NCBI RefSeq assembly: GCF_042660085.1 | Contig: NZ_JBHSTI010000008.1 | Span: forward strand, 1,479,876-1,511,875 | Origin: Longivirga aurantiaca | GTDB lineage: Bacteria; Actinomycetota; Actinomycetes; S36-B12; CAIYMF01 | Length of the DNA: 32,000 nucleotides | Direction of reading: 5' to 3' | Shown: positions 9,709 through 31,162 of the stretch, in pieces | How positions within the stretch are numbered: the stretch's first letter is position 1 | Layout: each line of letters opens with the position of its first letter | Notes under the pieces: generated by a model | What the model saw: the letters and a program-made list of their open reading frames with translations, nothing else | Told to the model about the DNA's origin: nothing | The model's database searches: none | Translations under genes and position numbers: made by a program

Positions 9709-10841
9709 GCGCGGGTCCGCCCGCGCGCCACCGACCGCAGCGCGTCCTCGAAGCCGTCGACGGCGGACTTCCACGAGTGCGCGGCGGCGTGGATTCCGCA
9801 GTCCATCCCCATCCGCTCCACGAGCGAGCGGTCCGACAGCAGCCCGTCGAGCCGGCGCTCGAGGTCGGCCTGGTCGTCGCAGAGATAGCCGGTGACGCCG
9901 TGGACGACCGACTCGTTGACGCCCCCGGCCGACCGGTAGGCCAGGGTCGGGGTGCCGCACGCCGCGGCCTCCACCGCGACCAGGCCCCAGCCCTCCTTGA
10001 GGGACGGGAGCAGGTGCACCCAGGCCCGGGCAAGCTCGGCGTCGCGCTCGTCGTCGCCGACCCGCCCCAGGAACTCGACCTGGTCGTGCAGGCCGAGGCG
10101 GTCGGAGAGGACCTCGAGCTCGTGCCGGTGGTAGCCCTCGCCGATGATCCTCAGCCGGAGGTCGGGGTGGCGGTGGCGGACGCGGGCCACTGCCTCGATG
10201 GCGTGCTCCACCTGCTTGTGCGGCACCAGGCGCGACACGACGACGACGCCGGGGCGGTCGTCGCGCGGGGGGAGCGACTCGGGCAGGTCGCTGCCATTGC
10301 GGACCACGACCAGCCTGTCGCCCGGATGCCCCAGGCCCTCCAGCTCTCGGGCGGTGCTGGAGCTCACCGCGACCGCGTGGGTGGCGCGGTGCACGAGCGG
10401 GCTGAGGCGGGACTCGATGAACCACCCGATGCGCCCGGCCACCGGGCCGACGGCCACGGGCCACTGCTCGCGGTGCACGTGGTGGACGACCAGGAGGGTG
10501 GTGCGCGGCCGGGCGACGGCCGCGAAGAACGGGATGCCGTTCTGGACGTCGACGACCACGTCGTAGCCACGGGACGTCGAATGCAGGAAACCCTTGCCGT
10601 ACACGCCCAGACGGCCGCCGCGACGGCGGTAGCGCACGCCCCGGTCGAGCTCGTCGCGGGGGCGGCCGGCGTACGCCGCCGTGGCGATCGTGACCTCGTG
10701 CCCGCGCTCGGCGAGACCGCGCGCCACCTGGCCCAGCGTGCGCTCCGAGCCGCCCGCCTCCGGATGCCACTCGTCGCGCCAGCTGAGGACCAGCACGCGC
10801 AGGGGTGCGCGACCGGCCGGCTCGACGACGTGCTCGCTCAT
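9705..10841 (-). CDS. GT4-family (GT-B fold) glycosyltransferase
   Basis: 378 aa. N-terminal LRVLVLSWRDEWHPEAGGSERTL... and C-terminal LPSLKEGWGLVAVEAAACGTPTLAYRSAGGVNESVVHGVTGYL form a typical GT4 E-x7-E region. Confidence 0.9.
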   Translation of the reverse strand: MSEHVVEPAGRAPLRVLVLSWRDEWHPEAGGSERTLGQVARGLAERGHEVTIATAAYAGRPRDELDRGVRYRRRGGRLGVYGKGFLHSTSRGYDVVVDVQNGIPFFAAVARPRTTLLVVHHVHREQWPVAVGPVAGRIGWFIESRLSPLVHRATHAVAVSSSTARELEGLGHPGDRLVVVRNGSDLPESLPPRDDRPGVVVVSRLVPHKQVEHAIEAVARVRHRHPDLRLRIIGEGYHRHELEVLSDRLGLHDQVEFLGRVGDDERDAELARAWVHLLPSLKEGWGLVAVEAAACGTPTLAYRSAGGVNESVVHGVTGYLCDDQADLERRLDGLLSDRSLVERMGMDCGIHAAAHSWKSAVDGFEDALRSVARGRTRA

Positions 10842-10852
10842 GAGTCCGAAGT

Positions 10853-11644
10853 GTGCCCTACGGTGGCCCGGTGTCGGAGGTCGAGCAGGCGACGTGGAGC
10901 CGTGCGTACCGGCTGTTCCGCGACTTCAGGGTCGAGCAGAGCGACCCCGACCGCTTCTACAGCGCCCTGGCATCTGACAGCATCGCGCAGCTCCGTCAGT
11001 TCACCTCCCTCGATGGTGCGAAGGTGCTCGACGTCGGCGGCGGCCCCGGCTACTTCGCCGACGCCTTCGCGGACTCGGGCGCCTGGTACGTCCCCGTCGA
11101 GTACGACCACGGCGAGTTGTCCGCCCGCGGGGGAGTGTCGGTCCGCTCCGTCATGGCCGACGGCGCACGGCTACCGTTCCACGACTGCTCGTTCGACGTG
11201 GTCTACAGCTCCAACGTGCTCGAGCACGTGCCGGACCGCGCCGCGATGGTGCGCGAGATGGTCCGTGTCGCGGCGCCCGGCGGTCTCGTCTTCGCGGCGT
11301 ACACGGTCTGGTTCGGCCCGTGGGGCGGGCACGAGACGTCGCCCTGGCACTTCCTCGGCGGGATGCGGGCGCGACGCCGCTACTCCCGCGTGCACGGCCA
11401 TGAGCCCAAGAACAGGTTCGGCGAGAGCATGTTCGCAGTGACGGTGGCCGAGGGCCTGGGGCTCGCGCGCGACCTGCCCCAGGCGGACCTGGTCGCGGTC
11501 TTCCCGAGGTACCTGCCCCGCTCCACCTGGTGGCTGCTCCGAGTCCCCGGGGTCCGCGAGGTGGCGACCTGGAACCTCGCCCTCGTGTGGCGGCGGCGCC
11601 CCGACGCGGCCCCGACGTCCGGCAGGGACGCAACTCGCCGGTAA
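10853..11644 (+). CDS. Class I SAM-dependent methyltransferase (Methyltransf_11-like)
   Basis: 263 aa, divergent from the GT4 gene. Motif I is KVLDVGGGPGYFADAF, and DVVYSSNVLEHVPD is the post-I/II region. The start could instead be GTG 10871. Confidence 0.8.
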   Translation: MPYGGPVSEVEQATWSRAYRLFRDFRVEQSDPDRFYSALASDSIAQLRQFTSLDGAKVLDVGGGPGYFADAFADSGAWYVPVEYDHGELSARGGVSVRSVMADGARLPFHDCSFDVVYSSNVLEHVPDRAAMVREMVRVAAPGGLVFAAYTVWFGPWGGHETSPWHFLGGMRARRRYSRVHGHEPKNRFGESMFAVTVAEGLGLARDLPQADLVAVFPRYLPRSTWWLLRVPGVREVATWNLALVWRRRPDAAPTSGRDATRR

Positions 11645-11719
11645 CTTCCGGGTCTCAATCAGCGCCAACCGCGCTGGGTATCCGCTAACGTCCGCGCATC
11701 AGTCGTCGAAGGAGTCGGT

Positions 11720-12688
11720 ATGAAGCGTGGCCTGGGCATCGCCCTCGTGGGTCTGGGGGCGTTCCTCCTGGTCCTGGCTGGAGCGCTCAAGTTCTACGCA
11801 GTCCCTGCCCTGTCCAAGGCGCCGCTCGTCCCGGGTGAGTCCACCGGGGGCATCTCGACGTCGCTGGCGGTCGGGACGGCCGAGACCCTCTTCGACCCGA
11901 GCGCCCTCGTCGCCGGCGAGAACCCGATCCGCACCAACGTGCCGCTCACGTCGACGCGCACGACCCGTGGCGATGTCACGGAGTCGCAGACCGACGCCGC
12001 CAAGGCGGACGACCTCGCGATCTACGACTCGTTCTCGAACCTCACGGACGACACCGGCACGACCATCTCGGCCGGCACGATCCGTGTCGCCTTCGACCGC
12101 GTGACGTCCGAGCTGTCGAACTGCTGCAACGCCAACATCGACGGCGAAACGGTCGAGTGGTCGGGCATCAACCCGCTGAAGTTCCCGTTCAACGTCGAGC
12201 AGAAGACCTACGACTACTTCGACACCACGCTGGTGAAGGCGGTCCCGATCGAGTTCACGGGCACCGAGGACCTCGACGGCCTCGAGGTCTACGTCTTCAA
12301 GCAGAGCATCCCGGCGACGCAGATCGGCGAGCAGGAGGTGCCGGGCTCGCTCGTCGGCTCCACCGAGGCCAGCGTCAAGGCTCCGCGCATGTACGAGAAC
12401 GTGCGCACCCTGCAGGTCGACCCGGTGACCGGCTCGATCATCGCCGGCGTCGAGCAGCAGAAGCAGTGGCTCGCGGGCGCCGACGGCACCGAGAAGCTCA
12501 CGATCATCAAGGCGACAGTCGGAACCGAGGACGCCACCAAACAGGCCGCGATCGACGACGCCAAGACCAACGGCGCGCTGCTCAAGACCCTCGGCAGCAC
12601 CGTGCCGCTCGTCGGCTTCGTCCTCGGCCTGATCCTGCTCGTCGTCGGATTCGTCCTCGTGGCCCGCAAGGACCCGTCCACCTCCTGA
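11720..12688 (+). CDS. DUF3068-like ('PorA-family'-type) membrane-anchored protein
   Basis: ATG is preceded by aaggag. There is an N-terminal TM (GIALVGLGAFLLVLAGALKFY) and a C-terminal TM (VPLVGFVLGLILLVVGFVLVA) around a ~270-aa acidic, Thr-rich ectodomain. The architecture matches what I recall for DUF3068. Confidence 0.75.
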   Translation: MKRGLGIALVGLGAFLLVLAGALKFYAVPALSKAPLVPGESTGGISTSLAVGTAETLFDPSALVAGENPIRTNVPLTSTRTTRGDVTESQTDAAKADDLAIYDSFSNLTDDTGTTISAGTIRVAFDRVTSELSNCCNANIDGETVEWSGINPLKFPFNVEQKTYDYFDTTLVKAVPIEFTGTEDLDGLEVYVFKQSIPATQIGEQEVPGSLVGSTEASVKAPRMYENVRTLQVDPVTGSIIAGVEQQKQWLAGADGTEKLTIIKATVGTEDATKQAAIDDAKTNGALLKTLGSTVPLVGFVLGLILLVVGFVLVARKDPSTS

Positions 12689-12701
12689 CCTGGAGCCGGG
12701 C

Positions 12702-13082
12702 TCAGCCTCGGCTGAGGTCGGCGTCCCGGAAGAGCGGCACCGTGGCCGAGGCGTCGCGCATCAGGCGGTCCATGCTCGTCGGCGTCCGGTTCACGACGAC
12801 GACGTCGAGGTCGCAGGCGCCCCGGGCCACCACGGTCTGCGCGTAGGTCGGTGTCGTGCCGGTCGAGGGGGAGCAGACCGGCGTCCTGCTGCTCCAGGGC
12901 CCGTACGGGGTGTCGGACGGCAGGACGACGATGCGCAGGCGCCCCGCGCGGCCGGGTGCGACCGCATCGACACCCGTGCCCACGTTGACGAGGGCGGTGC
13001 TGCGCACGATCGTGGTGCCGTCGGCGCTCCGGCGTCCCCGCCGGGCCTGTCGCCGTCCAGCGCGCGGAGCATCCGGTTCCAC
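12702..13082 (-). CDS. Hypothetical protein; 5' end and start uncertain (possible frameshift)
   Basis: Very high GC3 runs from about 13007 (GTG, VRSTALVNVGTGVDAV...) down to TGA 12702-12704. Upstream of about 13015 the high-GC3 signal moves to another frame (...AAAWNRMLRALDGDRPGGD). I recognise no family. Confidence 0.4.
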   Translation of the reverse strand: MEPDAPRAGRRQARRGRRSADGTTIVRSTALVNVGTGVDAVAPGRAGRLRIVVLPSDTPYGPWSSRTPVCSPSTGTTPTYAQTVVARGACDLDVVVVNRTPTSMDRLMRDASATVPLFRDADLSRG

Positions 13083-13178
13083 GCCGCGGCGTCCGCAGGC
13101 TCGGATCCGCAGCAGTCCCGGTGCTGGCCGACCGGTGCCGGCAGCCGATCGGACGAACCCCGGCCGGTGCCTCTCGCA

Positions 13179-13958
13179 TCACACCGTCGTGCACACCCAG
13201 ATCGCCGTGCCGGGGAGGATCGCACCGCGGGTGGGCGACCAGCCGCCCCAGACCTGGTCGTTCCGCTCCGGCCACTCCGGCTCGACGAGGTCCAGCACCC
13301 GGAGGCCCGCGGAGGTGAGGGCGCGGACGGTGTCGCCCACCGTCCGGTGGTGCTCCACGTACGTCGCGGTGCCGTCCGGATCGCGCTCGACGTACGGAGT
13401 GCGGTCGAAGTACGGGCGGTCCGCCACGAGGCCTGCCGGGCCGGGAGCGTCCGGGAAGGCCCAGCGCACCGGGTGCGTGACCGAGAAGACCCACCGGCCC
13501 CCCGGGCGCAGCACGCGGGCCACTTCCGCGAACACCGCCCCGACGTCGGCGACGAACGGGATCGCGCCGTACGCCGAGCACACGACGTCGAAGACGGCGG
13601 GGCCGAACGGCAGCTCGCCGGCGTCGGCCTGGACCAGCGGCACCGCGGGGGAGAAGGTGCGGGAGTGGGCCAGCATCGCGTGGCTCAGGTCGAGCGCGAC
13701 GACGCGCGCGCCCTGGCCGGCGAGCCAGCGAGCGCCCTGCGCGCCCCCGGCGCCGACCTCGAGGACACGGCGTCCGGAGACCGGACCCAGCAGGCCCAGC
13801 TCGGCCTCGGTCCAGCCCTCCGGCCCCCACACGAGGTCCGAACCGGCCCGCGCGTCGCCGAGGAAGGCACCGTGCTCGGCGGCGTACCCCGTCGCCTCGG
13901 CGTCCCACCAGGCCCGGGAGGCCCGGACCGAGTCGCGTCGTCCCAGGTCAGAGCGCAT
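13179..13958 (-). CDS. Class I SAM-dependent methyltransferase
   Basis: Trimmed to ATG 13956-13958 (MRSDLGRRDSVRASRAWWDAEA...). Motif I is RVLEVGAGGAQGARWLA, followed by FDVVCSAYGAIPFV and LRPGGRWVFSV. Confidence 0.85.
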   Translation of the reverse strand: MRSDLGRRDSVRASRAWWDAEATGYAAEHGAFLGDARAGSDLVWGPEGWTEAELGLLGPVSGRRVLEVGAGGAQGARWLAGQGARVVALDLSHAMLAHSRTFSPAVPLVQADAGELPFGPAVFDVVCSAYGAIPFVADVGAVFAEVARVLRPGGRWVFSVTHPVRWAFPDAPGPAGLVADRPYFDRTPYVERDPDGTATYVEHHRTVGDTVRALTSAGLRVLDLVEPEWPERNDQVWGGWSPTRGAILPGTAIWVCTTV

Positions 13959-16407: not shown

Positions 16408-18519
16408 ATGGCCCGCCCTGTCACCGACCTGCAGCGCACCGTCGCGCCCTTCGAGGTCATCTCCGACTACATCCCGTCCGGCGACCAGCCCGCAGCCATC
16501 GCGGAGATCGCGGCACGGATCGAGTCCGGGGCCCAGGACGTCGTGCTCCTCGGCGCCACCGGCACCGGCAAGTCGGCGACCACCGCGTGGCTGATCGAGA
16601 AGCTCCAGCGCCCCACCCTGGTGATGGCGCCCAACAAGACCCTGGCCGCGCAGCTCGCCAACGAGTTCCGCGAGCTGCTGCCCAACAACGCCGTCGAGTA
16701 CTTCGTCAGCTACTACGACTACTACCAGCCCGAGGCGTACATCCCGCAGTCGGACACCTACATCGAGAAGGACTCCTCGATCAACGAGGAGGTCGAGCGG
16801 CTCCGGCACTCGGCCACCAACTCGCTGCTGACCCGGCGCGACGTCATCGTCGTCGCCTCGGTCTCGTGCATCTACGGCCTCGGCACCCCGCAGGAGTACG
16901 TCGACCGCATGGCCCGCCTCACGGTGGGCCAGGAGTGGAACCGCGACGACCTGCTGCGCCGGCTCGTGTCGATCCAGTACACCCGCAACGACCTCGCGTT
17001 CACCCGCGGCACGTTCCGGGTGCGCGGCGACACGATCGAGATCTTCCCGGTCTACGAGGAGCACCCCGTCCGGATCGAGATGTTCGGCGACGAGGTCGAG
17101 CGCCTCATGACGCTGCACCCGGTCACGGGCGAGATCCTCACCGAGGACTCCGAGCTCTACATCTTCCCGGCCACGCACTACGTCGCCGGCCCGGAGCGCA
17201 TGGAGCGCGCCATCGGCGGTATCGAGGCCGAGCTCGAGGCCCGCCTCGCCGAGCTCGAGAAGCAGGGCAACCTGCTCGAGGCCCAGCGCCTGCGCATGCG
17301 CACCACGTACGACCTGGAGATGATGCGGCAGGTCGGCTTCTGCTCCGGCATCGAGAACTACAGCCGCCACATCGACGGCCGCGAGGCGGGCACCGCACCG
17401 CACTGCCTCCTCGACTACTTCCCCGAGGACTTCCTGCTCGTCATCGACGAGTCCCACGTCACCGTGCCGCAGATCGGCTCGATGTACGAGGGCGACATGA
17501 GCCGCAAGCGCACGCTCGTCGAGCACGGGTTCCGCCTCCCGAGCGCGATGGACAACCGTCCGCTCAAGTGGGAGGAGTTCCTCGAGCGCGTCGGGCAGAC
17601 GGTCTACCTGTCGGCGACGCCGGGCAAGTACGAGCTCTCGCGCGTCCACGACGACGTCGTCGAGCAGGTCATCCGCCCGACCGGCCTCGTCGACCCCGAG
17701 GTGGTCGTGAAGCCCACCAAGGGCCAGATCGACGACCTCATGGGCGAGATCCGCCTGCGCACCGACAAGGACGAGCGCGTCCTCGTCACCACGCTCACCA
17801 AGAAGATGGCCGAGGACCTCACCGACTACCTGCTCGAGCAGGGGATCCGGGTGCGCTACCTGCACTCGGAGGTCGACACGCTGCGGCGCATCGAGCTCCT
17901 GCGCGAGCTCCGGCTCGGTCTGTACGACGTCCTGGTCGGCATCAACCTCCTGCGCGAGGGCCTCGACCTCCCCGAGGTGTCCCTGGTGGCGATCCTCGAC
18001 GCCGACAAGGAGGGGTTCCTGCGCTCGGGCACCTCGTTGATCCAGACGATCGGCCGCGCGGCCCGCAACGTGAGCGGCCAGGTCCATATGTACGCCGACA
18101 CCATCACCCCGTCGATGGCCAAGGCCATCGACGAGACCAACCGGCGCCGCGCCAAGCAGGTGGCCTACAACGAGGCCCACGGCGTCGACCCGACGCCGCT
18201 GCGCAAGAAGATCCAGGACATCAGCGACCTCATCACCCGCGAGGACGCCGACACCGAGGAGCTGCTCGGCGGCTCGGGGCGCACCCAGTCCCGCGGCAAG
18301 GCGCCCGTGCCCGGCATGGGCTCGGCGCGCGGGGGAGCGGCCGGCCTCGACGTCAGCGGGATGCCCGCGCGCGAGCTGGCCGAGCTCATCGGCGAGCTGA
18401 CCGACCAGATGCACGCGGCGGCGGCCGAGCTGCAGTTCGAGGTGGCGGCCCGGCTGCGCGACGAGGTGTCGGACCTGAAGAAGGAGCTCCGGCAGATGCA
18501 GGCGGCCGGTCACGCCTGA
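16408..18519 (+). CDS. uvrB: Excinuclease ABC subunit B
   Basis: 703 aa. Walker A is [10 protein letters not shown], the helicase motif is [13 protein letters not shown], and the C-terminal UVR domain is [21 protein letters not shown]. Confidence 0.97.
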
Positions 18520-18626
18520 TCGGCACGTGTCCTCTGATCGGCACTTGTCCTCTGATCGGCACTTGTCCTCTGATCGGCACTTGTCCTCTGATCGGCACGG
18601 GGTCCGCTGATGGGCATGGGGTCCCC
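18517..18626. repeat. Tandem direct-repeat array: 4 x 18 bp plus 2 x 19-bp degenerate units
   Basis: Units begin at 18517, 18535, 18553 and 18571 (tgatcggcac[g/t]tgtcctc; units 2-4 identical). Units at 18589 (tgatcggcacggggtccgc) and 18608 (tgatgggcatggggtcccc) are degenerate. The first TGA is the uvrB stop codon, and the array ends 60 nt before the TerC start. Confidence 0.9.
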
Positions 18627-18686: not shown

Positions 18687-19670
18687 GTGAACATCCCCGG
18701 CTGGATCTGGGCCGCCACGATCGCGCTGTACACGGTGCTGTTCGTCATCGATCTGCTGATCGTGGGCCGTCGCCCGCACATCCCCAGCACGGCCGAGTGC
18801 GTCCGTTGGCTGAGCCTCTACGTCGGCATCGCGATCGCGTTCGGCCTGGCCATGTGGTGGTGGGCGGGTCGCGACTACGCCGTGCAGTTCTTCGCGGGCT
18901 GGGTGACCGAGTACAGCCTGTCGGTCGACAACCTCTTCGTGTTCCTGCTGATCATGGCGCGCTTCTTCGTGCCGCGTGAGCTGCAGCAGTCCGTGCTCAT
19001 GTACGGCATCTTCATCGCGCTGATCCTGCGGGCGATCTTCATCGCGCTGGGTGCCGCGGTGATTGCTCAGTACAGCTGGGTCTTCTACTTCTTCGGCGCC
19101 TTCCTCGTGTTCACCGCGGTCAGGCTCGCCACCGAGGGGGAGACCGACGACGACGAGTACCGCGAGAACGCCCTTGTGCGCTGGGTCTCGCGGCTCGTCT
19201 CGACCACCCCCGACTTCCACGGCACGAAGCTGCACACCATCGTCGACGGCAAGAAGCTGTGGACCCCGATGCTGCTGGTGCTGCTCTCGCTGGGCACCAC
19301 CGACCTCGTCTTCGCGCTGGACTCGATCCCCGCGATCTTCGGCCTCACGCAGGAGGCGTACATCGTGTTCGCCGCCAACGTGTTCGCGCTGCTCGGCCTC
19401 CGCCAGCTGTACTTCCTGCTCGGCGACCTGCTGAACCGGCTCATCTACCTGTCGATCGGGCTCGCGATCGTGCTCGGGTTCATCGGCGTCAAGCTCGTGC
19501 TCGAGGCCATGCACACCAACTCGGTGCCGTTCCTGAACGGCGGCGAGCCCTTCCCGGTGCCCGTGCCCTCCACAGGGCTCTCCCTCGCCGTCATCGTCAC
19601 CGTCCTCACGGTCACGACCGTCGCGAGCCTCGTCGTCTCGCGGCGTGAGGGTGCGCGAGAGCCTCTGTAG
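18687..19670 (+). CDS. TerC-family integral membrane protein (paralogue 1)
   Basis: 327 aa, GTG start. TerC signatures are EYSLSVDNLFVFLLI and TDLVFALDSIPAIFGLTQE, and the protein is multi-TM. Confidence 0.9.
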   Translation: MNIPGWIWAATIALYTVLFVIDLLIVGRRPHIPSTAECVRWLSLYVGIAIAFGLAMWWWAGRDYAVQFFAGWVTEYSLSVDNLFVFLLIMARFFVPRELQQSVLMYGIFIALILRAIFIALGAAVIAQYSWVFYFFGAFLVFTAVRLATEGETDDDEYRENALVRWVSRLVSTTPDFHGTKLHTIVDGKKLWTPMLLVLLSLGTTDLVFALDSIPAIFGLTQEAYIVFAANVFALLGLRQLYFLLGDLLNRLIYLSIGLAIVLGFIGVKLVLEAMHTNSVPFLNGGEPFPVPVPSTGLSLAVIVTVLTVTTVASLVVSRREGAREPL

Positions 19671-19761: not shown

Positions 19762-20763
19762 ATGGACGTCACCCTCGCACTCTGGGCCGCCACGATCGCC
19801 GGCATCCTCGTGCTGATCGCGCTCGACTTCGTCACCGTCAGCCGCAAGCCGCACGAGGTGGAGTTCCGCGAGGCTGCGCTCTGGTCCGTCTTCTACATCG
19901 GCATCGCCATCGCGTTCGGCGCGTGGATCTGGTTCTCCTTCGGCACGACGCCGGGCACGGAGTACTTCGCGGCGTACCTCGTGGAGAAGTCGCTCTCGGT
20001 CGACAACCTCTTCGTCTTCGTCATCATCCTGACGCAGTTCGCGGTGCCGTCGATCTACCACCAGCGGGTCCTGCTCGTCGGTGTCGTCCTCGCTCTGGTG
20101 TTCCGCGCGATCTTCATCGCCATCGGTGCTGCGGCGCTGGCGGCGTTCGCCTTCACGTTCGTCATCTTCGGCGCCATCCTCATCTGGACGGGCATCGGCC
20201 TGTTCCGGCACAGGGACGCCGACCCGAACCCCAAGGACAACGCGGTGGTGCGCAGCGTCCGTCGTTTCGTCCCCGTCACCGACGAGTACGACGGCACGAA
20301 GCTGTTCACACACATCGACGGCAAGCGCATGGCCACGCCGCTGTTCCTCGTGATGATCGCCATCGGCTCGACCGACCTGCTGTTCGCCCTCGACTCGATC
20401 CCGGCGACCTTCGGCGTCACCCAGGAGCCGTACCTCGTCTTCGCTGCGAACGCGTTCGCGCTGCTGGGCCTGCGCGCCCTCTACTTCCTGCTCAAGGGCC
20501 TGCTCGACAAGCTCGTCTACCTCTCCGTCGGTCTGGCGCTCATCCTGGTCTTCATCGGCGTCAAGCTGGTGCTGCTGTGGGCGCACGAGACCTGGCCGGC
20601 GGTGCCCAAGATCGAGACGTCGACCTCGCTCATCGTCATCGCGGCCGTCCTCACGATCACCGCGCTCGCGAGCTGGTGGGCGGTGCGTCGCGACCCCGAC
20701 CGCATCGCGCACGCCGGCACCGTGACCGATCCGCACCGCGACGACGACGAGCCGAAGGCCTGA
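19762..20763 (+). CDS. TerC-family integral membrane protein (paralogue 2)
   Basis: 333 aa, ATG start. EKSLSVDNLFVFVII and TDLLFALDSIPATFGVTQE are colinear with the upstream paralogue. There is an extra acidic C-terminal tail. Confidence 0.9.
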   Translation: MDVTLALWAATIAGILVLIALDFVTVSRKPHEVEFREAALWSVFYIGIAIAFGAWIWFSFGTTPGTEYFAAYLVEKSLSVDNLFVFVIILTQFAVPSIYHQRVLLVGVVLALVFRAIFIAIGAAALAAFAFTFVIFGAILIWTGIGLFRHRDADPNPKDNAVVRSVRRFVPVTDEYDGTKLFTHIDGKRMATPLFLVMIAIGSTDLLFALDSIPATFGVTQEPYLVFAANAFALLGLRALYFLLKGLLDKLVYLSVGLALILVFIGVKLVLLWAHETWPAVPKIETSTSLIVIAAVLTITALASWWAVRRDPDRIAHAGTVTDPHRDDDEPKA

Positions 20764-20797
20764 CCTCGTCACCACGACCTCGTCACCGCGACCTCGG
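20762..20797. repeat. Short 14-bp tandem repeat (2.6 copies) abutting the TerC-2 stop codon
   Basis: gacctcgtcaccac / gacctcgtcaccgc / gacctcgg, with units starting at 20762, 20776 and 20790. Confidence 0.7.
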
Positions 20798-20928
20798 CGG
20801 GGGACCAGGCTCTGCACCGCGACAAGCGCGCCAGCAGGGCCGTCCGAGCGTTCGGCGCTGTGCCCGCGCGCAGGCCGGCCGAGGCCTACCGTGCGCGCAC
20901 CGGCCCGCACTCGTCGCCTGGAGTCGCC

Positions 20929-21096
20929 ATGGCCCGCATCGTCACCCTCGTGGCAGCCCTCGCTGGCGCGGTCGCGCTGCCCGTCGGGATCATGCAGGCC
21001 CGGTCGGACGCGACGTCCGAGGGCGCTGCCGGAGCGACGCTGCTGATCGGTGCGGGTGTCGTGGTGCACGCTCACCGGCCGTGGCACGGCAGGTGA
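20929..21096 (+). CDS. Small hydrophobic protein (55 aa), hypothetical
   Basis: ATG 20929 has ggag 6-9 nt upstream. The sequence MARIVTLVAALAGAVALPVGIMQ...GATLLIGAGVVVHA has two hydrophobic segments and high GC3. I recognise no family. Confidence 0.35.
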   Translation: MARIVTLVAALAGAVALPVGIMQARSDATSEGAAGATLLIGAGVVVHAHRPWHGR

Positions 21097-21156
21097 GGGA
21101 AGGCCATCGAGTCGAGTACGCCGTGCAACCCGGTTCGCCGAGGAGTCTGCGGCCGC

Positions 21157-21346
21157 TCACCAGCCGCGGTCGCGCCACTCGGCGAGGTGGGGCCGCTCGG
21201 CGCCGAGGGTCGTGTCCTTGCCGTGGCCCGGGTAGACCCAGGTCTCGTCCGGCAGGACGTCGAAGAGCTTGCCGACCACGTCTGCGTACAGGCTGTCGAA
21301 CCGCGACGCGTCGCCCCAGGTGTTGCCCGAGCCCCCGGGGAAAAGC
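21157..21346 (-). pseudogene. Orphan 3'-terminal fragment of the MBL-fold hydrolase gene (displaced copy)
   Basis: It encodes ...GNTWGDASRFDSLYADVVGKLFDVLPDETWVYPGHGKDTTLGAERPHLAEWRDRGW*. This is near-identical to the last 62 codons of the intact gene at 25890..26546, but no gene body lies upstream. The stop is TGA, against TAG in the intact copy. Confidence 0.85.
21159..21346. repeat. Direct repeat, left copy (att-like, 188 bp)
   Basis: Aligns with 25892..26079 at a constant offset of 4733 bp. I count 4 mismatches (21273, 21329, 21330, 21343), and the first 114 bp are identical. Confidence 0.9.
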
Positions 21347-21556
21347 ATGGGCCAGGTTCGCGCGCACCCTCTCCTGGCCGAGCTGCGCGCCAGCCGCACC
21401 CTGGTCGCACGCCTGCTGTCGCAGATCGGCTTGCCGGGTGAAGGTGACGAGGTCGCGCTGACGCCGCTTCAGCGACGCTCCAAGCGCGGCAACGATGGCC
21501 GCTGGGCAGCGCATCGGGAGTCAGTCGCGCGACGTCGTGCGGCAGGACTCGAGTGA
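21347..21556 (+). CDS. Phage-like protein fragment resembling the C-terminus of a small terminase subunit (tentative)
   Basis: ATG 21347 lies exactly at the repeat boundary. The sequence is MGQVRAHPLLAELRASRTLVARLLSQIGLPGEGDEVALTPLQRRSKRGNDGRW... The pattern (HPLL..R......RLL...GLP...R) recalls actinophage TerS/P27-type C-termini from memory only. Confidence 0.4.
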   Translation: MGQVRAHPLLAELRASRTLVARLLSQIGLPGEGDEVALTPLQRRSKRGNDGRWAAHRESVARRRAAGLE

Positions 21557-21834
21557 TGGCGCGCCGACGCCGGCAGACCGAGCCCGCCGTGGTTCACCCG
21601 CTGACGATGTCCGGCTACGTCGCCGCCCGGGTGACGGCCACCGGCGCGCCTGTCGTGGCGTACGGCTTCCAGTTCGGGCGCACGGGCCCGGAGGGCATGG
21701 TCGAGTTCGCGCTCGAGCCCGACGGCACCCTGACGGCCGTGGAGCGGTTCCGGATGAGCCCGTCGGAGGTTCGGCACCGTCGCCCCGATGGCACCGTCGT
21801 CCGGAGCGAAGGGGTGGACGATGGCACGACGTAG
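21553..21834 (+). CDS. Hypothetical protein (93 aa)
   Basis: The GTGATG start overlaps the upstream stop (coupled). GC3 is very high throughout. I recognise no family. Confidence 0.55.
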   Translation: MMARRRRQTEPAVVHPLTMSGYVAARVTATGAPVVAYGFQFGRTGPEGMVEFALEPDGTLTAVERFRMSPSEVRHRRPDGTVVRSEGVDDGTT

Positions 21835-22129
21835 GACGCCACCGGAGCCCGAGCCGGACCAGGGTGCACCGATGCCGCCCGAGCTCCAGTTCCGCCCGCC
21901 GATGCCGCTGACGATCTCCGAGTTCCGCGACTTGAAGCGACGCCGTACCGAGTGGCTCGAGGCGCACGACCTGCTCGACGACCGCGGGCTGCCGGACTGG
22001 CAACGCCTGCCGAATCCGGGCGGTCCTCCGCGATCGGTACGTTCCGCTCATGGACCCCCGCCCCGTGACCGTCACCGACTCGGCGGGCGACTGGCAGGGG
22101 TGGCTTCTCGCATGGCGCCGCGATGGTGA
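21821..22129 (+). CDS. Hypothetical protein, phage-context (about 75-100 aa; 3' end uncertain)
   Basis: ATG 21821 overlaps the upstream stop by 14 nt, with aagggg upstream. The sequence is MARRRTPPEPEPDQGAPMPPELQFRPPMPLTISEFRDLKRRRTEWLEAHDLLDDRGLPDWQRL... GC3 decays after about 22030, where the next ORF's frame takes over. Confidence 0.45.
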   Translation: MARRRTPPEPEPDQGAPMPPELQFRPPMPLTISEFRDLKRRRTEWLEAHDLLDDRGLPDWQRLPNPGGPPRSVRSAHGPPPRDRHRLGGRLAGVASRMAPRW

Positions 22130-22229
22130 CCACTGGCGCGGCCTCGTCCGATACCGGAAGCCGCACGAGACCGGATACGTCCTGACCTACGAGCACGCGG
22201 TCGACGGCGGCTCTCTGCGGCCTCGCTAG
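22050..22229 (+). CDS. Small W-rich protein P1 (59 aa), paralogue of 23697..23873; not in the supplied ORF track
   Basis: ATG 22050 to TAG 22227-22229: MDPRPVTVTDSAGDWQGWLLAWRRDGDHWRGLVRYRKPHETGYVLTYEHAVDGGSLRPR. GC3 is high, and 27 of 58 positions are identical to P2 by hand alignment. Confidence 0.5.
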   Translation: MDPRPVTVTDSAGDWQGWLLAWRRDGDHWRGLVRYRKPHETGYVLTYEHAVDGGSLRPR

Positions 22230-22366
22230 GCGAGGCCTATCGGCACTTCGCCGGCCTTCGCCCCGCAGTGGTCGCAGGCGCCGCTCAGCTCGACCAGCGG
22301 TGAACTGCATCGTGGCCAGAGCCGCCGCGACAAGCGGCGTGCCTTTCCGTTCGTGGAGATGCAGCC

Positions 22367-22394
22367 GCGACGGGGTCCTGATGAACCCCGTCGC
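22367..22394. terminator. Hairpin between convergent island genes
   Basis: gcgacgggg (22367-22375) - tcctgatgaa - ccccgtcgc (22386-22394), a perfect 9-bp stem. It lies between the P1 stop and the collagen-like gene stop. Confidence 0.5.
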
Positions 22395-22410
22395 GTGCTA
22401 ATGCAGGCAG

Positions 22411-23277
22411 TTACTGGGTCGGTTGGAGACTTCCGAACGCCGGGCAGACCCCGAGGCCGGGGGTTGTGAGGTGCATGCCGTATCCGACATGGCCGATGAT
22501 GTTCGGCACGGTTCCGTAGTGGCCGGCTACGAAGTTGACCTGTCCAGATCCCTCGCCGCTGCTGTCGCTGGTAGCGGCCACAACTGTGTACGACGAGGCA
22601 CCGCCCTTGAATCCGTCGCCCTCGAAGCTGAACGCAGTTGCGCCCTTGACGCCGCCACCGGCGATATTGAATTGGTCGGCGCGACTCAGAGTGATGGTGA
22701 TCGACGTGGTCGGGGCCGTGTAGGAGCACGACACGGTCAACGTGTAGCCGTTCACGGTCGTGGTGGCCGAGCCCGTCTGGCCAAATCCTCCCAACGGATT
22801 CACGAAGAAGGATGGCGAATTCGGTCCTGCGGGGCCGGGTGCGCCGTCCTGACCGTCCTGACCGGCCGGGCCGGTCGGACCGGCGGGTCCAGTGGCGCCC
22901 CGCGCGGCCAGAAGCCCCCAGGCCGTTGCGCTCGACGCCGGGGGCTTGTTGAGCGAGGACGTCTTGGCGACGTAGGAGGAGCCGCCCACCGTCACCACGT
23001 CCTGCGTCGCGTAAGTCACCGTCGAGGACCATGCGTTGCGATACCTGTAGCCCTTGGCCCAGTGGATCGTCTGCTCACTGGTGGTGCACGTCTTGCCCCG
23101 CTGGGCGTCGATGACGCGCGTGGCACCTGTGGTCTTGTTGACGCATGCCGTATAGGTGCTCGTCGTGCTCGACGGGATGTTGGCAACTGCTACGCCCCCA
23201 CCGAAGACGAGCATGCTCACGGCGACGCCCGCCACGAATCCGGTAAGACCCCGCCGTCTTGCAAGAAGCTGCTTCAT
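22411..23277 (-). CDS. Secreted/anchored collagen-triple-helix-repeat protein with tail-fibre-like modules (288 aa)
   Basis: Trimmed to ATG 23275-23277 (MKQLLARRRGLTGFVAGVAVSMLVFGGGVAVA, signal/anchor). It has a YTACVNKTTGATRVIDAQRGKTCTTSEQTIHW motif, and a W...Y..QDVV..GGSSYVA....N.PP.....W..LA module. Nine G-X-Y triplets follow (GATGPAGPTGPAGQDGQDGAPGPAGPN, nt 22819-22899), then a Gly/Thr-rich beta-like C-terminal domain. G+C is lower than in the flanks. Confidence 0.8.
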   Translation of the reverse strand: MKQLLARRRGLTGFVAGVAVSMLVFGGGVAVANIPSSTTSTYTACVNKTTGATRVIDAQRGKTCTTSEQTIHWAKGYRYRNAWSSTVTYATQDVVTVGGSSYVAKTSSLNKPPASSATAWGLLAARGATGPAGPTGPAGQDGQDGAPGPAGPNSPSFFVNPLGGFGQTGSATTTVNGYTLTVSCSYTAPTTSITITLSRADQFNIAGGGVKGATAFSFEGDGFKGGASSYTVVAATSDSSGEGSGQVNFVAGHYGTVPNIIGHVGYGMHLTTPGLGVCPAFGSLQPTQ

Positions 23278-23405
23278 GGAACACCTGGCTCCCGATCGTT
23301 GTCCCGGACACTCGACGAGCACCGTGGGCGTGCGCGCGACACTAGTTCTGGCCGGTAACCACTGTCCTGGGAACGGACGCACCTGGCCGGCCCGACCCGG
23401 ACGTG

Positions 23406-23448
23406 CGACGACCCCGACACCTACGGGGGCGAGGTAGCGGGGTCGTCG
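23406..23448 (-). terminator. Stem-loop downstream of the small minus-strand gene
   Basis: cgacgacccc (23406-23415) pairs with ggggtcgtcg (23439-23448), a 10-bp GC stem with a 23-nt loop. It begins 10 nt after the stop at 23458. There is no U-tract. Confidence 0.35.
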
Positions 23449-23457
23449 GTGGATCAG

Positions 23458-23652
23458 CTACCGGTGGTCCTCCGGGTTGAGCAGGGCGTCAACCATCGTC
23501 ACCCCGCACAGCGCCTCGACTGTCCAGTCATCGTGCACCGCATGCGCCGTCCCAATGCCGATGACGACGGCAGCGGGCACCACTCGACGGCCCGCCTTCA
23601 TGCCGTCGGGGGTCTTGCTCTTCGTCTCAGCGAACCCGGTGATCAGCGTCAT
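23458..23652 (-). CDS. Hypothetical small protein (64 aa)
   Basis: ATG start and high GC3: MTLITGFAETKSKTPDGMKAGRRVVPAAVVIGIGTAHAVHDDWTVEALCGVTMVDALLNPEDHR. I recognise no family. Confidence 0.45.
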   Translation of the reverse strand: MTLITGFAETKSKTPDGMKAGRRVVPAAVVIGIGTAHAVHDDWTVEALCGVTMVDALLNPEDHR

Positions 23653-23696
23653 GCGGTCAGCATTGCAGCCGGTTCCGACGGCGGTACGGTCGCAGC

Positions 23697-23873
23697 GTGG
23701 ACCCCGTCGCCTGCACAGTCACCACGGACACGGGCGAGCGTCCCGGTTGGGTACTGGCGTGGCAGCGCACGGAGGGCACCTGGCGCGCCCTGTGCCGCTA
23801 CTCGCGGCCCGTCGACGGGTACAGCCTCACCTTCGAGCATTGGCTGCCGGCGAGCGCCCTGCGTGCCCGCTAG
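23697..23873 (+). CDS. Small W-rich protein P2 (58 aa), paralogue of 22050..22229; not in the supplied ORF track
   Basis: GTG 23697 is the first start after in-frame TGA 23640-23642, and the ORF ends at TAG 23871-23873: VDPVACTVTTDTGERPGWVLAWQRTEGTWRALCRYSRPVDGYSLTFEHWLPASALRAR. Confidence 0.5.
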   Translation: MDPVACTVTTDTGERPGWVLAWQRTEGTWRALCRYSRPVDGYSLTFEHWLPASALRAR

Positions 23874-23912
23874 CGGTTGCATCGCCCGCGCCGGCCGCGC
23901 TTCCCTAGTCGG

Positions 23913-24185
23913 GTGGACTGCGAGTGGTTGACCGTTGACGAGGTCGCAGGGCCGGCTCGGCTACGATCGCGCGACCGTCTACCCCCTGGTGCTCGCCAGG
24001 CCCCTTCCCGTCTCGCTGCCCCGTTGGACGAGCGGGCGGCGCTGGAAGGCAAGACCAGCATCGCCTTGACGCCGTGCGAGGCCCGGCGCCACACCGAAAC
24101 CCGTAGCGCAAGGGCGGCGGGACCAAACCGAATGGTGACGGGACTTGGCTCGCCAGGACTGGCTCGAGCCTCCTCACTAGCCTGA
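23913..24185 (+). pseudogene. Excisionase/HTH_17 (MerR-superfamily)-like gene scrambled by a compensated pair of frameshifts
   Basis: Frame 0 gives V-DCEWLTVDEVAG (23913-23951). Frame +1 gives RLGYDRATVYPLVLARPLPVSLPRW (23953-24027). Frame 0 resumes with LDERAALEGK... (24024 onward). Joined, these read like a typical Xis HTH (LTVxEAAxxLGVSRxTVYRLVxxGxLPxxxxGRxW). The switches fall in a G-run (23949-23951) and a C-run (24019-24022). Confidence 0.4.
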
Positions 24186-24212
24186 AGAGGAGACACGTGG
24201 GGGTGGATCGCG

Positions 24213-25061
24213 ATGACCTTTGCATCCAGGACGTGGTCCCTGTTTGTGCTGGCGTTGCTGGTCGCATCTTGCGGTTCGGCTTCCACAGACTCCGTGCCAT
24301 GGGAAGGACTGGGCCCCGTGGTCCCGCTCTCGGGCGTCGCCCGGGTCGACGCAAGCATGGGGCCGCTCGAGGTCGAGGTGGTTGCGATCCGATGCAACTC
24401 CCGCTACTGCTTCGTGCGGCAGAACGTGCGGAACCTGGGCAAGCAGCGTGAGCGCTTCTTGTGGCCGGAGACCCTGATCGATGCGAAGGGCGTTCCCCAC
24501 CGCAGTTGTTGCGGTGACGTGGGGCTCGCCGGCGCGAGCATTCCGCCGGGCCATTCCCAGCCCATGTTCGTCGAGTGGTCACTACCAGCCGAGCTCACCC
24601 TCGTCGCGATGGAAATTGGGGCACCGCGAATAGAGCTGCCACGACCGCTCGACCTGACCCAACAGGAGTCCGATCTCACGCCCGACACCGACTACGGCGA
24701 TGAGGTGCCCATTGGCGTTTCGGTCTCCGCCGACACCGAGTACGGCGCCTTCCAGGTGACGGTGGACTCCATCGCCTGCCGCGTCCGCGAATGCCGGATC
24801 ACTCAGCATGCGACCGGGCTCGACCAGGACGCCAACTGGAGGGACTACCCCGCCTACCTGCAGCAGGCGCTGGACGCGGCAGGAGGACGACACGCCGCGC
24901 TTGTGCCCTGGCCCGGGGACGATCCTCGCTACGGACCAATGGTCCACTCCGCCTGGGAGGCTAAGGAGTTCTACGCCACGTTCGACATCCCCGCCGGCAC
25001 CCGGCTGACGCAACTGATCATGCCGGGTGCCGCCAAGCCTGTGCGGCTGCCCCTTAGCTGA
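24213..25061 (+). CDS. Cys-rich lipoprotein with two tandem DUF4352-like beta modules (282 aa)
   Basis: The signal peptide plus lipobox is MTFASRTWSLFVLALLVAS-C. Two colinear halves are visible (GPLEVEVVAIRC...LTLVAMEIGAPRIELP and GAFQVTVDSIAC...LTQLIMPGAAKPVRLPL). The DUF4352 resemblance is by eye. Confidence 0.8.
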   Translation: MTFASRTWSLFVLALLVASCGSASTDSVPWEGLGPVVPLSGVARVDASMGPLEVEVVAIRCNSRYCFVRQNVRNLGKQRERFLWPETLIDAKGVPHRSCCGDVGLAGASIPPGHSQPMFVEWSLPAELTLVAMEIGAPRIELPRPLDLTQQESDLTPDTDYGDEVPIGVSVSADTEYGAFQVTVDSIACRVRECRITQHATGLDQDANWRDYPAYLQQALDAAGGRHAALVPWPGDDPRYGPMVHSAWEAKEFYATFDIPAGTRLTQLIMPGAAKPVRLPLS

Positions 25062-25889
25062 TGGATTAACTCGGGCCGGGCCTGGCGATGTGACTACTCG
25101 AGTCGCCCGCGCCTGACGTGCAATGGTCCTCCCGGGTCTGCCACGGTTGCCGCATGAGTGACAGTGACCAGTTCGCGAAAGCGTGGGAGCGCGACGAGAC
25201 CCCGAAGCTGAGCCGGGTGCCGCCGGTTCACCGACCATCGGGCTACCTCCGGTCAACTTCGGATCATCAGGTCAGGCTGACGACATCGTGGAACTCACTA
25301 GGAATGCCCTAAACGAGACGCGACTACAGAACACTTCCCAGCCCAAACACAAGTTCTCGCACTTGATTCTGGTCGCCAGCACGTCGGGTGACCATGAGCG
25401 ACCGGTTCGGGTGCGGGTTGCCTACGTCAACCAGTACGAAGACGAAGACACCACGGCTGCTACTTCGCGTCGCACGGTCACCTGCGCCACAGCTACACAG
25501 ATGTCGCCACCATCGATGTGGTCTCACCAGCGTTCTGGTTGGCGCTTCCCCAATACGCGCAAGTTCATCAAGTGGTCGATTGGAACGTTACGCACTGGTG
25601 GAGGATGCGCATGGCCGTCGCTGCGGAACTTGGCGAAGGCCTCTCGCCATCGAGCCCGGCCCAGGCCGACGCTCTCGGCCTGCCTGGGACCGAACTGGCA
25701 GAAGAGGTCCTCAACGTGCAGTTCGTCTGCCTAGATCCGGATCTGTGCACTGCGGGTTCTGCACATCGACTGTTTCGCCCCCGCCCCCGATCATTGGCCA
25801 CCTAGACGAGCGCCGTGAGCACCGGTACGCGCGGCCATGCCTTTCGGTGTGGAGCAGTTCGGGGCGCATAGATCGAGGCCCGGGCACTG
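25062..25889. other. Low-G+C, frame-fragmented stretch next to the right repeat (probable decayed gene(s))
   Basis: Protein-like runs switch frame: MSDSDQFAKAWERDETPKLSRV (from 25154), then ...DIVELTRNALNETRLQN...VRVRVAYVNQYEDEDTT... (frame of 25183), then ...WLALPQYAQVHQVVDWNVTHWW... (25518..25805). No frame is open for more than about 180 codons, and there are no integrase motifs on either strand. Palindromes are agatccggatct (25733-25744) and tgtgca-N10-tgcaca (25744-25765). Confidence 0.35.
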
Positions 25890-26546
25890 CTACCAGCCGC
25901 GGTCGCGCCACTCGGCGAGGTGGGGCCGCTCGGCGCCGAGGGTCGTGTCCTTGCCGTGGCCCGGGTAGACCCAGGTCTCGTCCGGCAGGACGTCGAAGAG
26001 CTTGCTGACCACGTCTGCGTACAGGCTGTCGAACCGCGACGCGTCGCCCCAGGTGTTGCCCACGCCCCCGGGGAAGAGCGAGTCGCCGGTGAAGACGTGC
26101 GGCGCACCGGTGGGGTCGTCGTACACGAGCGCCACGGAGCCGGGGGTGTGCCCCTTCAGGTGCACCACCCGCAGCCGTGCGTCGCCCACCGCGACGAGGT
26201 CGCCCTCGGCCAGCATGCGCGTGACGGGCACCTCGATGTCGGGGGCGTCGTCGGCGTGGGCGAGGTGCTCCGCCCCGGTGGCGGCGAGCACGTCGGCGAG
26301 CGCCTGCCAGTGGTCCCTATGCCCGTGCGTGGTGACCACGGCGTCGAGGCCGTCCTCGCCGACGAGGTCGAGCAGCGCGGAGGCGTCGGCGGCCGCGTCG
26401 AGCAGCACCTGGCGCCCGGTGGCCGTGCAGCGCAGGAGGTACGCGTTGTTGTCGTACGGCCCGACGGCCAGCTTGCTGATGACGAGGTCACGCAGCTCGC
26501 GCACGGCTGCGGGCCCACCCACGGTGACGTTCCCGGTGTAGCTCAC
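25890..26546 (-). CDS. MBL-fold metallo-hydrolase (Rv1637c-like), 218 aa
   Basis: Trimmed to GTG 26544-26546 (VSYTGNVTVGGPAAV...). It has the HxHxDH motif (VVTTHGHRDHWQ) and HLKGHTPGS. It sits next to uvrA as in mycobacteria. Confidence 0.9.
   Translation of the reverse strand: MSYTGNVTVGGPAAVRELRDLVISKLAVGPYDNNAYLLRCTATGRQVLLDAAADASALLDLVGEDGLDAVVTTHGHRDHWQALADVLAATGAEHLAHADDAPDIEVPVTRMLAEGDLVAVGDARLRVVHLKGHTPGSVALVYDDPTGAPHVFTGDSLFPGGVGNTWGDASRFDSLYADVVSKLFDVLPDETWVYPGHGKDTTLGAERPHLAEWRDRGW
25892..26079. repeat. Direct repeat, right copy (att-like, 188 bp; forms the true 3' end of the MBL hydrolase gene)
   Basis: See 21159..21346. The two copies lie 4733 bp apart. Confidence 0.9.
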
Positions 26547-26598: not shown

Positions 26599-26922
26599 TC
26601 ACTCGCCCGCGGCGACGATCCAGACCTTGCGCAGCGTCTCGGTGATCTCCCACGACGTGATGTCGCCCGCGTGGAGCACGCCGACGACGCCGGGAGCGAG
26701 GTCGATGCGACCGCCGTTCTGGCAGGTGACCACCCCGCGGCCGGACAGCACCACGAACATCTCGTCGCCGAAGTCGCCGGTCGAGGTGCCGACCTCGTGC
26801 ACCCAGACGCCTGACTCGAGCCCGGCCCCCGCGAAGCCCTCGCCGATACCGGTGGGTGCACTGCCGTCCGCAGGCACGGCCAGGGAGACGTCGACGGCAG
26901 GGGCGAGGAAGCTGCTGATCAT
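26599..26922 (-). CDS. Small cupin-domain protein (107 aa)
   Basis: ATG start. The sequence is beta-rich with VWVHEVGTSTGDFGDEMFVVLSGRGVVTCQNGGRIDLAPGVVGVLHAGD, typical of single-domain cupins. Confidence 0.7.
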   Translation of the reverse strand: MISSFLAPAVDVSLAVPADGSAPTGIGEGFAGAGLESGVWVHEVGTSTGDFGDEMFVVLSGRGVVTCQNGGRIDLAPGVVGVLHAGDITSWEITETLRKVWIVAAGE

Positions 26923-30718: not shown

Positions 30719-31162
30719 ATGACCGACCAGATCGCTCCCACCCGCCGCCAGGTCCTGCTGACCTCCGGCACCGTCGTCGCCGCCGCTGCGGTCACCGCCG
30801 CGTGCGGCAGCAGCGACAGCGGGTCCGGATCCGGGTCCGGGTCCGGGTCCGGATCCGGGTCCTCCGCGCCGCCGGCCGGCGCGACCGTCAAGACCGCCGA
30901 CGTGCCCGTCGGCGGCGGCGCGATCGTCAAGGACGCCAAGGTGGTGGTGACCCAGCCGCAGGAGGGCACCTTCAAGGCGTTCAGCGCCGTCTGCACCCAC
31001 CAGGGCTGTGTCGTGTCGTCCGTGGCCGACGGATCGATCACCTGCGCCTGCCACGGCAGCGTCTTCTCGGCTGCGGACGGCTCCGTCACCCAGGGCCCCG
31101 CGAAGAGCCCCCTCGCCGAGCTCACCGCTACCGTCTCGGGCGACACGATCACCGTCGCATGA
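30719..31162 (+). CDS. Rieske [2Fe-2S] domain protein with Tat signal and probable lipobox
   Basis: ATG 30719 has gaggag upstream. It has a twin-arginine signal (PTRRQVLL), then ...AVTAAC-GSS, a (GS)7 linker and the Rieske motif CTHQGC...CACHGS. Confidence 0.85.
   Translation: MTDQIAPTRRQVLLTSGTVVAAAAVTAACGSSDSGSGSGSGSGSGSGSSAPPAGATVKTADVPVGGGAIVKDAKVVVTQPQEGTFKAFSAVCTHQGCVVSSVADGSITCACHGSVFSAADGSVTQGPAKSPLAELTATVSGDTITVA
30821..30862 (+). repeat. Hexanucleotide microsatellite (GGKTCC)x7 encoding (Gly-Ser)7
   Basis: gggtcc ggatcc gggtcc gggtcc gggtcc ggatcc gggtcc, inside the Rieske lipoprotein linker. Confidence 0.9.

Follow-up and report, generated by a model that had tools for sequence, protein, structure and literature searches.

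A degenerate insertion that preserved the MBL-fold hydrolase gene of Longivirga aurantiaca, probably left by an element of the K5 mycobacteriophage integrase clade

How can the end of a gene come to be present twice, on either side of foreign DNA, when the gene itself has stayed intact? The question is raised by a stretch of 32,000 nt from Longivirga aurantiaca (contig NZ_JBHSTI010000008.1), hereafter the window, in whose coordinates all positions are given. Between uvrA and uvrB, the window carries an intact gene for a metallo-β-lactamase (MBL)-fold hydrolase, and a second copy of its 3′ end lies 4.7 kb away. The block between the two copies (21347–25889) is best read as the decayed remnant of a temperate phage, or of a small element derived from a phage, that was integrated site-specifically in the MBL gene, most likely by a serine integrase of the clade to which those of subcluster K5 mycobacteriophages belong. 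A probability of about 0.75 is assigned to this reading.

The two copies form a direct repeat of 188 nt (21159–21346 and 25892–26079, at an offset of 4733). Alignment, a repeat finder and a base-by-base script agreed on a gapless match with 184 of 188 positions identical. The four mismatches (21273 C/T, 21329–21330 GA/AC and 21343 A/G) all fall within the inner 74 nt, and the outer 114 nt are identical. Beyond the repeat, identity is at the level of chance, with 12/60 and 22/60 matches in the flanking 60 nt. The outer boundary lies inside the stop codons, which are TGA on the left and TAG on the right, and the inner boundary lies at the codons for Leu-Phe-Pro-Gly-Gly, beginning with Leu157. 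No other long near-identical repeat was detected in the window by the repeat finder; the remaining repeats reflect the paralogy of two TerC genes (TerC1/TerC2) and that within uvrA, at 62%–81% only.

The right copy, with its stop codon (25890–26079, minus strand), provides the last 62 codons and the TAG of the intact gene, which encodes 218 residues on the minus strand from 26546 to 25890 and matches Pfam Lactamase_B at 9e-13. The left copy (21157–21346, minus strand) encodes the same 62 residues with two differences (G/S and S/V), ends in TGA and is an orphan, having no gene body. Residues 178–218 of the MBL protein match phrog_21189, a 43-residue phage “hydrolase” family, at 1.7e-19, and both repeat copies match it. 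When the copies were re-aligned, the original prediction was found to have been correct in all it had reported of the repeat, namely its coordinates, offset and mismatches, the identical 114 nt, the nature of both copies and the unrelated flanks.

Is the DNA between the copies an insertion? The gene order uvrA, MDMPI-like gene and MBL gene, converging on TerC (one or two copies) and uvrB, is common to dozens of actinobacterial genomes. The uvrB–uvrA interval had been predicted to differ among actinobacterial lineages, and indeed the distance from MBL to TerC varies among Actinobacteria from 13 bp to >9 kb. In the close relatives (loci L088–L090 and L097–L099), in which the MBL protein is 89%–90% identical, the locus is collinear with the window on both sides of the block at 82%–88% nucleotide identity. 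There the MBL stop codon is followed by an open reading frame (ORF) of 174/175 residues and two TerC genes, and nothing matches 21347–25889. The block that had been predicted to be inserted is thus absent from these relatives. The nearest relative (L095, 94%) ends 55 bp past the MBL stop codon and is uninformative on the empty site. In 80 genome loci with MBL orthologues, no second copy of the gene end was found within 10 kb, a distance at which the orphan of a full-size prophage would lie beyond the fetched flank, and no integrase was detected with three integrase queries.

The composition of the block, which measures 4543 bp, is foreign. Its G+C content is 0.673, compared with 0.72 in the rest of the window, where the lowest other 4.5-kb segment reaches 0.680 and the adjoining TerC and uvrB genes are themselves at 0.66–0.69. 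The G+C content at third codon positions (GC3) is 0.67–0.91 in the ORFs of the block and 0.91–0.98 in host genes. Computed in this way, the drop between the repeats that had been noticed by eye is real, modest for total G+C and clear for GC3. The block had also been said to retain no integrase. In agreement with this, no Resolvase, Recombinase or Phage_integrase domain was found by Pfam and PHROG scans of 69 six-frame pieces of the region, and no integrase was found by tblastn.

What kind of element could have brought a second gene end? The members of phrog_21189 are subcluster K5 mycobacteriophages, in which the mini-gene adjoins a serine integrase in divergent orientation. The 43-residue C-terminal fragment of a hydrolase is noted, but not interpreted, in a genome announcement (PMC5679794). 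In translated comparison, the homology between these phages and the host covers MBL residues 156–218, starting at “(T)VFPGG” with an in-frame stop codon just before it. It begins at the same codon as the window repeat (“LFPGG”, residue 157). The start codon of the integrase (GTGAAT) is only ∼12–20 nt from the start of the MBL-homologous fragment (Kratio record 30771–30972, which is L001 6001–6202; also L002, L101 and L103), so the attachment site must overlap the 5′ region of the integrase gene. The “43-residue hydrolase” gene of the K5 phages is probably a replacement end for the host MBL gene, rather than an independent gene.

The same MBL fragment is located 12 nt from a large serine integrase in an unrelated viral contig (L100; also L104 and L105). 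The L100 integrase is 53% identical to that of Kratio over the full length, which indicates that these integrases form one family. When metagenome contigs were scanned with an alignment of these integrases, 79 loci were returned, of which 21 combined an integrase of ≥41% identity with sufficient upstream DNA. The MBL fragment was present in 20 of these 21 (19 by tblastn and L116 by eye), 7–98 nt upstream of the integrase start, divergent, and always beginning at the Phe-Pro-Gly-Gly (FPGG) codons (residues 156–158). Loci with an integrase ≤39% identical had no MBL fragment. Upstream of FPGG, the K5 phages, L100/L104 and 19 metagenomic loci contain unrelated sequence or stop codons. The attachment-site module is carried by very different elements, including the 61–63-kb phages, a 10.6-kb element and an element with a DUF3854/DUF3631 protein. 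On its element-side arm, the clade has the motifs TT[CG][AC]C at −23 to −19 and TNAG at −15 to −12 from the Phe codon, although this consensus is variable.

One locus with 2 kb of upstream DNA and an integrase 42% identical (L117) is the only clade member above 41% that lacks an MBL fragment upstream, perhaps because its target is a different one or because it has been rearranged.

The state of such an element after integration can be seen in two cases. In L110 the order is uvrB, thioesterase, Usp, orphan fragment and integrase, which puts the orphan between the integrase and the genes of the uvrB side. L102 and L111 are parts of one 10,914-bp contig (IMG/VR UViG_3300017540_000105, also Ga0180217_1004550), which starts inside a hybrid MBL gene, host-like in its 5′ part and K5-like over its last 62 codons. 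Its interior of ∼10.6 kb contains genes for a portal (2e-104), a head-tail adaptor (8e-41) and a replication initiator, with no recognizable tail or lysis genes, and its far end holds the integrase together with an orphan fragment that L110 has in identical form. The element resembles a phage satellite or mini-prophage, sitting in the MBL gene beside Usp and uvrB of a Mycobacterium-like host. Since its two copies of the gene end are only ∼60% alike, the exchange can be bracketed, by the last base specific to the host and the first specific to the element, to the 11 nt TT[T/C]CC[T/G]GGCGG, which encode FPGG.

The arrangement in the window matches this geometry, with an intact MBL gene, a block, and an orphan gene end beside the host genes on the uvrB side (the order being uvrB, TerC, TerC, orphan; in L110, too, the orphan is on the uvrB side). 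The match suggests that the right copy is that of the element, the left copy that of the host, and the FPGG codons the regions of exchange. From these comparisons we infer which integrase was lost, where exactly the exchange took place and from which source, host or element, each copy came. The recombinase, most likely a large serine integrase of the K5 clade, would have acted on the conserved FPGG-coding sequence that lies 62 codons before the stop codon of the host gene. The element would have carried its own copy of these 62 codons next to its attachment site, so that integration would have rebuilt a complete gene from the first 156 codons of the host and the last 62 of the element, the latter now forming the right repeat. 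The original gene end of the host would have been displaced by 4.7 kb and would survive as the orphan of the left repeat. The right copy, from ∼26064 down to 25890, would thus represent the replacement end (P′ side of attL), and the left copy the original 3′ end (B′ side of attR), joined to the TerC/uvrB-side flank. The intact MBL gene is probably a hybrid of a 5′ part from the host and a 3′ part from the element. With the boundary in the relatives and the bracket in the 10.6-kb element as guides, strand exchange is predicted at the FPGG codons of the intact gene (26064–26075, attL) and of the left copy (21331–21342, attR), both on the minus strand.

The gene-side sequences of both sites are intact in the window, and the element-side arm departs from the clade consensus. 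By the spacing seen in the relatives, an integrase on the plus strand would start ∼12–100 nt rightward of 21346; in its place, the window has at 21347 the ATG of a 69-residue ORF. The presence of this unrelated ORF at the integrase position, together with the absence of the arm motifs, suggests that the integrase and the arm were lost along with most of the element. With both of them gone, the remnant cannot move by itself. The flanks of the window repeats, aligned with those of the relatives downstream of each stop codon, gave scores no better than shuffled sequences, and the ancestral flank is placed at the orphan only by the gene order (TerC/uvrB side) and by analogy with L110.

Several observations weigh against this reading. 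As no trace of an integrase was found by the six-frame scans or tblastn, its family is assigned solely from the position of the homology boundary. The arm motifs of the clade are missing, the corresponding positions being occupied by GCGCG and ACCT. The two copies are 98% identical here and only ∼60% alike in the complete relative, which requires the additional assumption that the element was adapted to this host or that gene conversion took place later. The left copy has Ser directly after FPGG, a residue found at this place in none of 120 homologues; under this reading, the orphan would have acquired it later by a double substitution. Finally, the genes of the block have no relatives in phages, plasmids or other elements of the integrase clade, which leaves a phage origin of the content unproven, and its ORFs are mostly orphans, so that the content alone is no proof of a phage.

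Where in the repeat did the exchange take place? The original prediction had described a Campbell-type insertion. The inserted block, the duplicated 3′ end, the preservation of the host gene and the lack of an integrase were all borne out, but not the placement of the crossover. It had been located within the outer 114 identical bases, in an element that mimicked the gene end, with the inner, mismatched part of the left copy derived from the element; the integrase would then be of the tyrosine type or unspecified. Such a crossover would explain why the four mismatches are confined to the inner 74 nt, would require no mutation after integration and would account for the Ser of the left copy as part of an element sequence that was never expressed. 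However, the confinement of three mutational events to 74 of 188 nt has a probability of ∼0.06 by chance. In the intact relatives the homology starts at FPGG, every one of them with this boundary has a large serine integrase, and the crossover within the 114 bp conflicts with the 11-nt bracket in the 10.6-kb element. Neither a tyrosine recombinase nor a remnant of one was found by the six-frame scans or tblastn. The codon at 21272–21274, which contains the mismatch at 21273, encodes Gly in the left copy, as in six of the closest relatives, and Ser in the intact gene. This Gly would fit an exchange at FPGG, and hence a host origin of the orphan, at least as well as the opposite assignment. Taken together, a crossover within the identical 114 bp is unlikely. 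Strand exchange most likely took place at the inner edge of the repeat, in the FPGG codons, in which case nearly the whole right copy would derive from the element and nearly the whole left copy from the host; this is the reverse of the origin first given to the inner part of the left copy. The four mismatches alone do not fix the position of the crossover and cannot settle which assignment is right.

Was the integrase lost, or was it never there? The block could be a hitch-hiker, a cis-mobilizable element or satellite without an integrase, which was inserted, and could be moved again, in trans by the serine integrase of a related helper. The ATG placed exactly at the edge of the repeat looks like an original arrangement rather than the scar of a random deletion, and the range of elements on which the attachment-site module is found would also suit such a hitch-hiker. 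On the other hand, the window does not have the clade consensus for the element-side arm, genes for packaging, replication or regulation cannot be recognized, part of the block looks decayed, and no second copy or relative of it was found in the searches made. This origin is considered very improbable. The wider proposal, in which a living hitch-hiker is combined with an FPGG site that serves as a shared actinobacterial landing pad for an integrase clade with a 62-codon gene-repair cassette, is likewise regarded as improbable.

An origin other than by site-specific recombination, whether through local duplication of the gene end plus a foreign insertion, homologous recombination via a donor fragment or an artefact of assembly, would make 98% identity natural for a recent duplication and is in keeping with the lack of a recombinase, but it is very improbable, as the inner boundary is codon-identical to that of >20 independent serine-integrase elements, which is not expected from random duplication, the outer boundary lies at stop codons that differ (TGA and TAG), and four differences and unique flanks within a 2.36-Mb contig speak against an artefact.

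An integrated remnant of a K5-clade element thus remains the preferred reading, and it can be compared with known systems. The window resembles the K5 mycobacteriophages (Kratiovirus: Kratio, Larva, Collard, Edugator and AlleyCat) in that the last ∼62 MBL codons are present, starting at FPGG and ending at the stop codon. It differs from them in that they are complete, measure 61–63 kb and carry the integrase 12–20 nt from the fragment, whereas the window has neither an integrase nor a K5-like gene. With L110 and the L102 and L111 contig, the window shares the succession of a hybrid intact MBL gene, an element and an orphan end beside host genes of the uvrB side. In contrast to the window, the element of that contig has kept its serine integrase, portal, head-tail adaptor and replication initiator.

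A site-specific insertion that preserves the host gene and is now devoid of its integrase belongs to a familiar class. Cryptic prophage remnants and cis-mobilizable elements (CIMEs) consist of foreign DNA that has lost its recombination module and is surrounded by direct repeats derived from att sites. The window is similar to both, with att-type repeats flanking foreign DNA and no integrase. CIMEs keep both recombination sites functional. The missing arm consensus makes mobilization in trans doubtful for the block, which sets it apart from them.

Like the proposed element, Bxb1 (groEL1), phiC31, phiBT1 and A118 (comK) use a large serine integrase and a site inside a protein-coding gene. Their integration interrupts the target gene, and their attP and attB share little sequence. 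In contrast, an element that targets the MBL gene supplies a 62-codon replacement, and one of its attP arms resembles the host over ∼190 nt. If confirmed, an attP arm so close to attB would be an unusual case for site recognition by serine integrases. In the current model for large serine integrases, the half-sites are of 25 bp and the zinc-ribbon motif is shifted by 5 bp between attP and attB (PMC3783163).

The island in the window is in itself an ordinary cryptic remnant. The most useful outcome of the analysis is the connection with the K5 integrase clade, for which the MBL gene holds a conserved target. No description of the K5 attB was found in the literature searched. Reading the K5 mini-gene as a replacement end for MBL predicts this site, with the exchange expected within the codons TTCCCGGGCGG (FPGG). 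The target in the K5 hosts would be the gene next to uvrA, which, going by the gene order of M. tuberculosis, we take to be the counterpart of Rv1637c. A clade of large serine integrases across Actinobacteria would then have a single conserved coding motif as insertion site and leave the gene intact, and, if confirmed, the motif would offer a new non-disruptive site for vector integration in mycobacteria and their relatives.

What does the block itself encode? The ORF that directly abuts the repeat edge (21347–21556, plus strand, 69 residues) sits where the integrase of intact relatives starts, has only a weak TerS-like motif and matches nothing except itself among 5.8 billion proteins. The label “TerS-like” given to it earlier goes back to a single PHROG match of 36 residues (E = 7e-4), with no match in Pfam or NCBIfam, and is better replaced by that of an orphan. 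As a candidate for an integrase remnant, this ORF was rejected. The sole signal consists of six residues, GDEVAL, compared with GDRVAL in the Kratio integrase, and DNA comparison of the region with the 5′ regions of 23 integrase genes gave nothing significant except an out-of-register match to L118 (z = 5).

A second ORF (21553–21834, plus strand, 93 residues, GC3 0.91) overlaps the first by 4 nt; in a whole-library HMMER search it matched only itself and, weakly, repeats of the Ig/cadherin type. The third (21788–22229, plus strand) comprises 113 residues that run into a small ORF of 59 residues (22050–22229), here called paralogue A. Since its homology to relatives begins at 22032, before any start codon, the whole may be a gene that has been frameshifted or fused. 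On the minus strand, 22411–23277 encodes a protein of 288 residues (the longest ORF reaches 23382) with an N-terminal hydrophobic segment of the signal or anchor type, a CBM5/12-like motif, a short collagen repeat and a variable C-terminal domain. This protein had been called a tail fiber, a label that was not sustained, as its PHROG matches are limited to the CBM5/12 and collagen segment and its homologues occur in non-phage chromosomal contexts. Both this protein and that of the 69-residue ORF are 100% identical to L. aurantiaca proteins encoded on a contig of 2.36 Mb. Divergent from this collagen-like gene lies paralogue B (23697–23873, plus strand, 58 residues), in a pairing that recurs in L083 and L084. 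It is followed by an ORF of 282 residues (24213–25061, plus strand), which has, by eye, a lipoprotein-type signal (LLVASC) and no family match in profile scans. The remainder (25062–25889) has the lowest G+C content (∼0.62) and, on inspection of its frames, no convincing coding frame, and is probably decayed sequence. The “Xis-like” helix-turn-helix reported earlier amounted to a match of 19 residues at E = 0.009 and has been dropped.

Searches with the block as a whole gave little. Neither tRNA genes nor Rfam families were found in it, and promoter and terminator scans returned nothing relevant. Compared with phage and plasmid DNA, it matched only through the MBL repeat, and its content showed no similarity to the K5 genes that flank attP or to the 10.6-kb element. 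When viral contigs were scanned with the isolated gene end, with the collagen-like protein or with the 282-residue ORF, nothing was returned, or only matches to collagen repeats.

The homologues of the collagen-like protein are always accompanied by a divergent ORF of ∼58 residues, with a consensus of roughly MDP..VTV...G.W.GWLLAW.R..G.WR.LCRY..P..GY.LT.EHW.P...LRPR. Its pairing with a collagen-like/CBM5/12 gene was observed in three unrelated contexts, namely the window, L083 (6213–6395) and L084 (9658–9850), the L084 copy containing an in-frame TAG. Paralogues A and B of the window, on either side of the collagen-like gene, are ∼50% identical. The best family match of the small ORF is only to DUF6253, at E = 0.13. 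In L084–L086, a block of ∼5 kb (∼8250–13500) between DEAD-box helicase and AhpC-type genes carries, besides a collagen-like gene and the small ORF, a tyrosine recombinase of 303 residues and several orphan ORFs; it may be another small island with the same cargo module.

The remaining features lie outside the block. The host flank between the stop codons of TerC2 and the orphan (20764–21156) has a possible 78-residue ORF (20860–21096, plus strand) and no significant similarity to the flanks of the relatives. The two tandem TerC-family paralogues (18687–19670 and 19762–20763) are 73%–81% identical in blocks at the nucleotide level; two copies are also present in the close relatives, and one in more distant Actinobacteria. 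Between the MBL and MDMPI-like genes, a cupin-like gene of 107 residues (26599–26922, minus strand) is shared by the window and L095, its closest relative; L088 and L097 lack it and have MDMPI immediately before MBL. Two short tandem repeats were also observed. An 18-nt unit, CTGATCGGCACTTGTCCT, occurs in 4.6 copies that are 98% identical (18516–18616), from the last bases of uvrB into the spacer between uvrB and TerC1, and a 14-nt unit, GACCTCGTCACCAC, is repeated 2.5 times at the stop codon of TerC2 (20762–20796).

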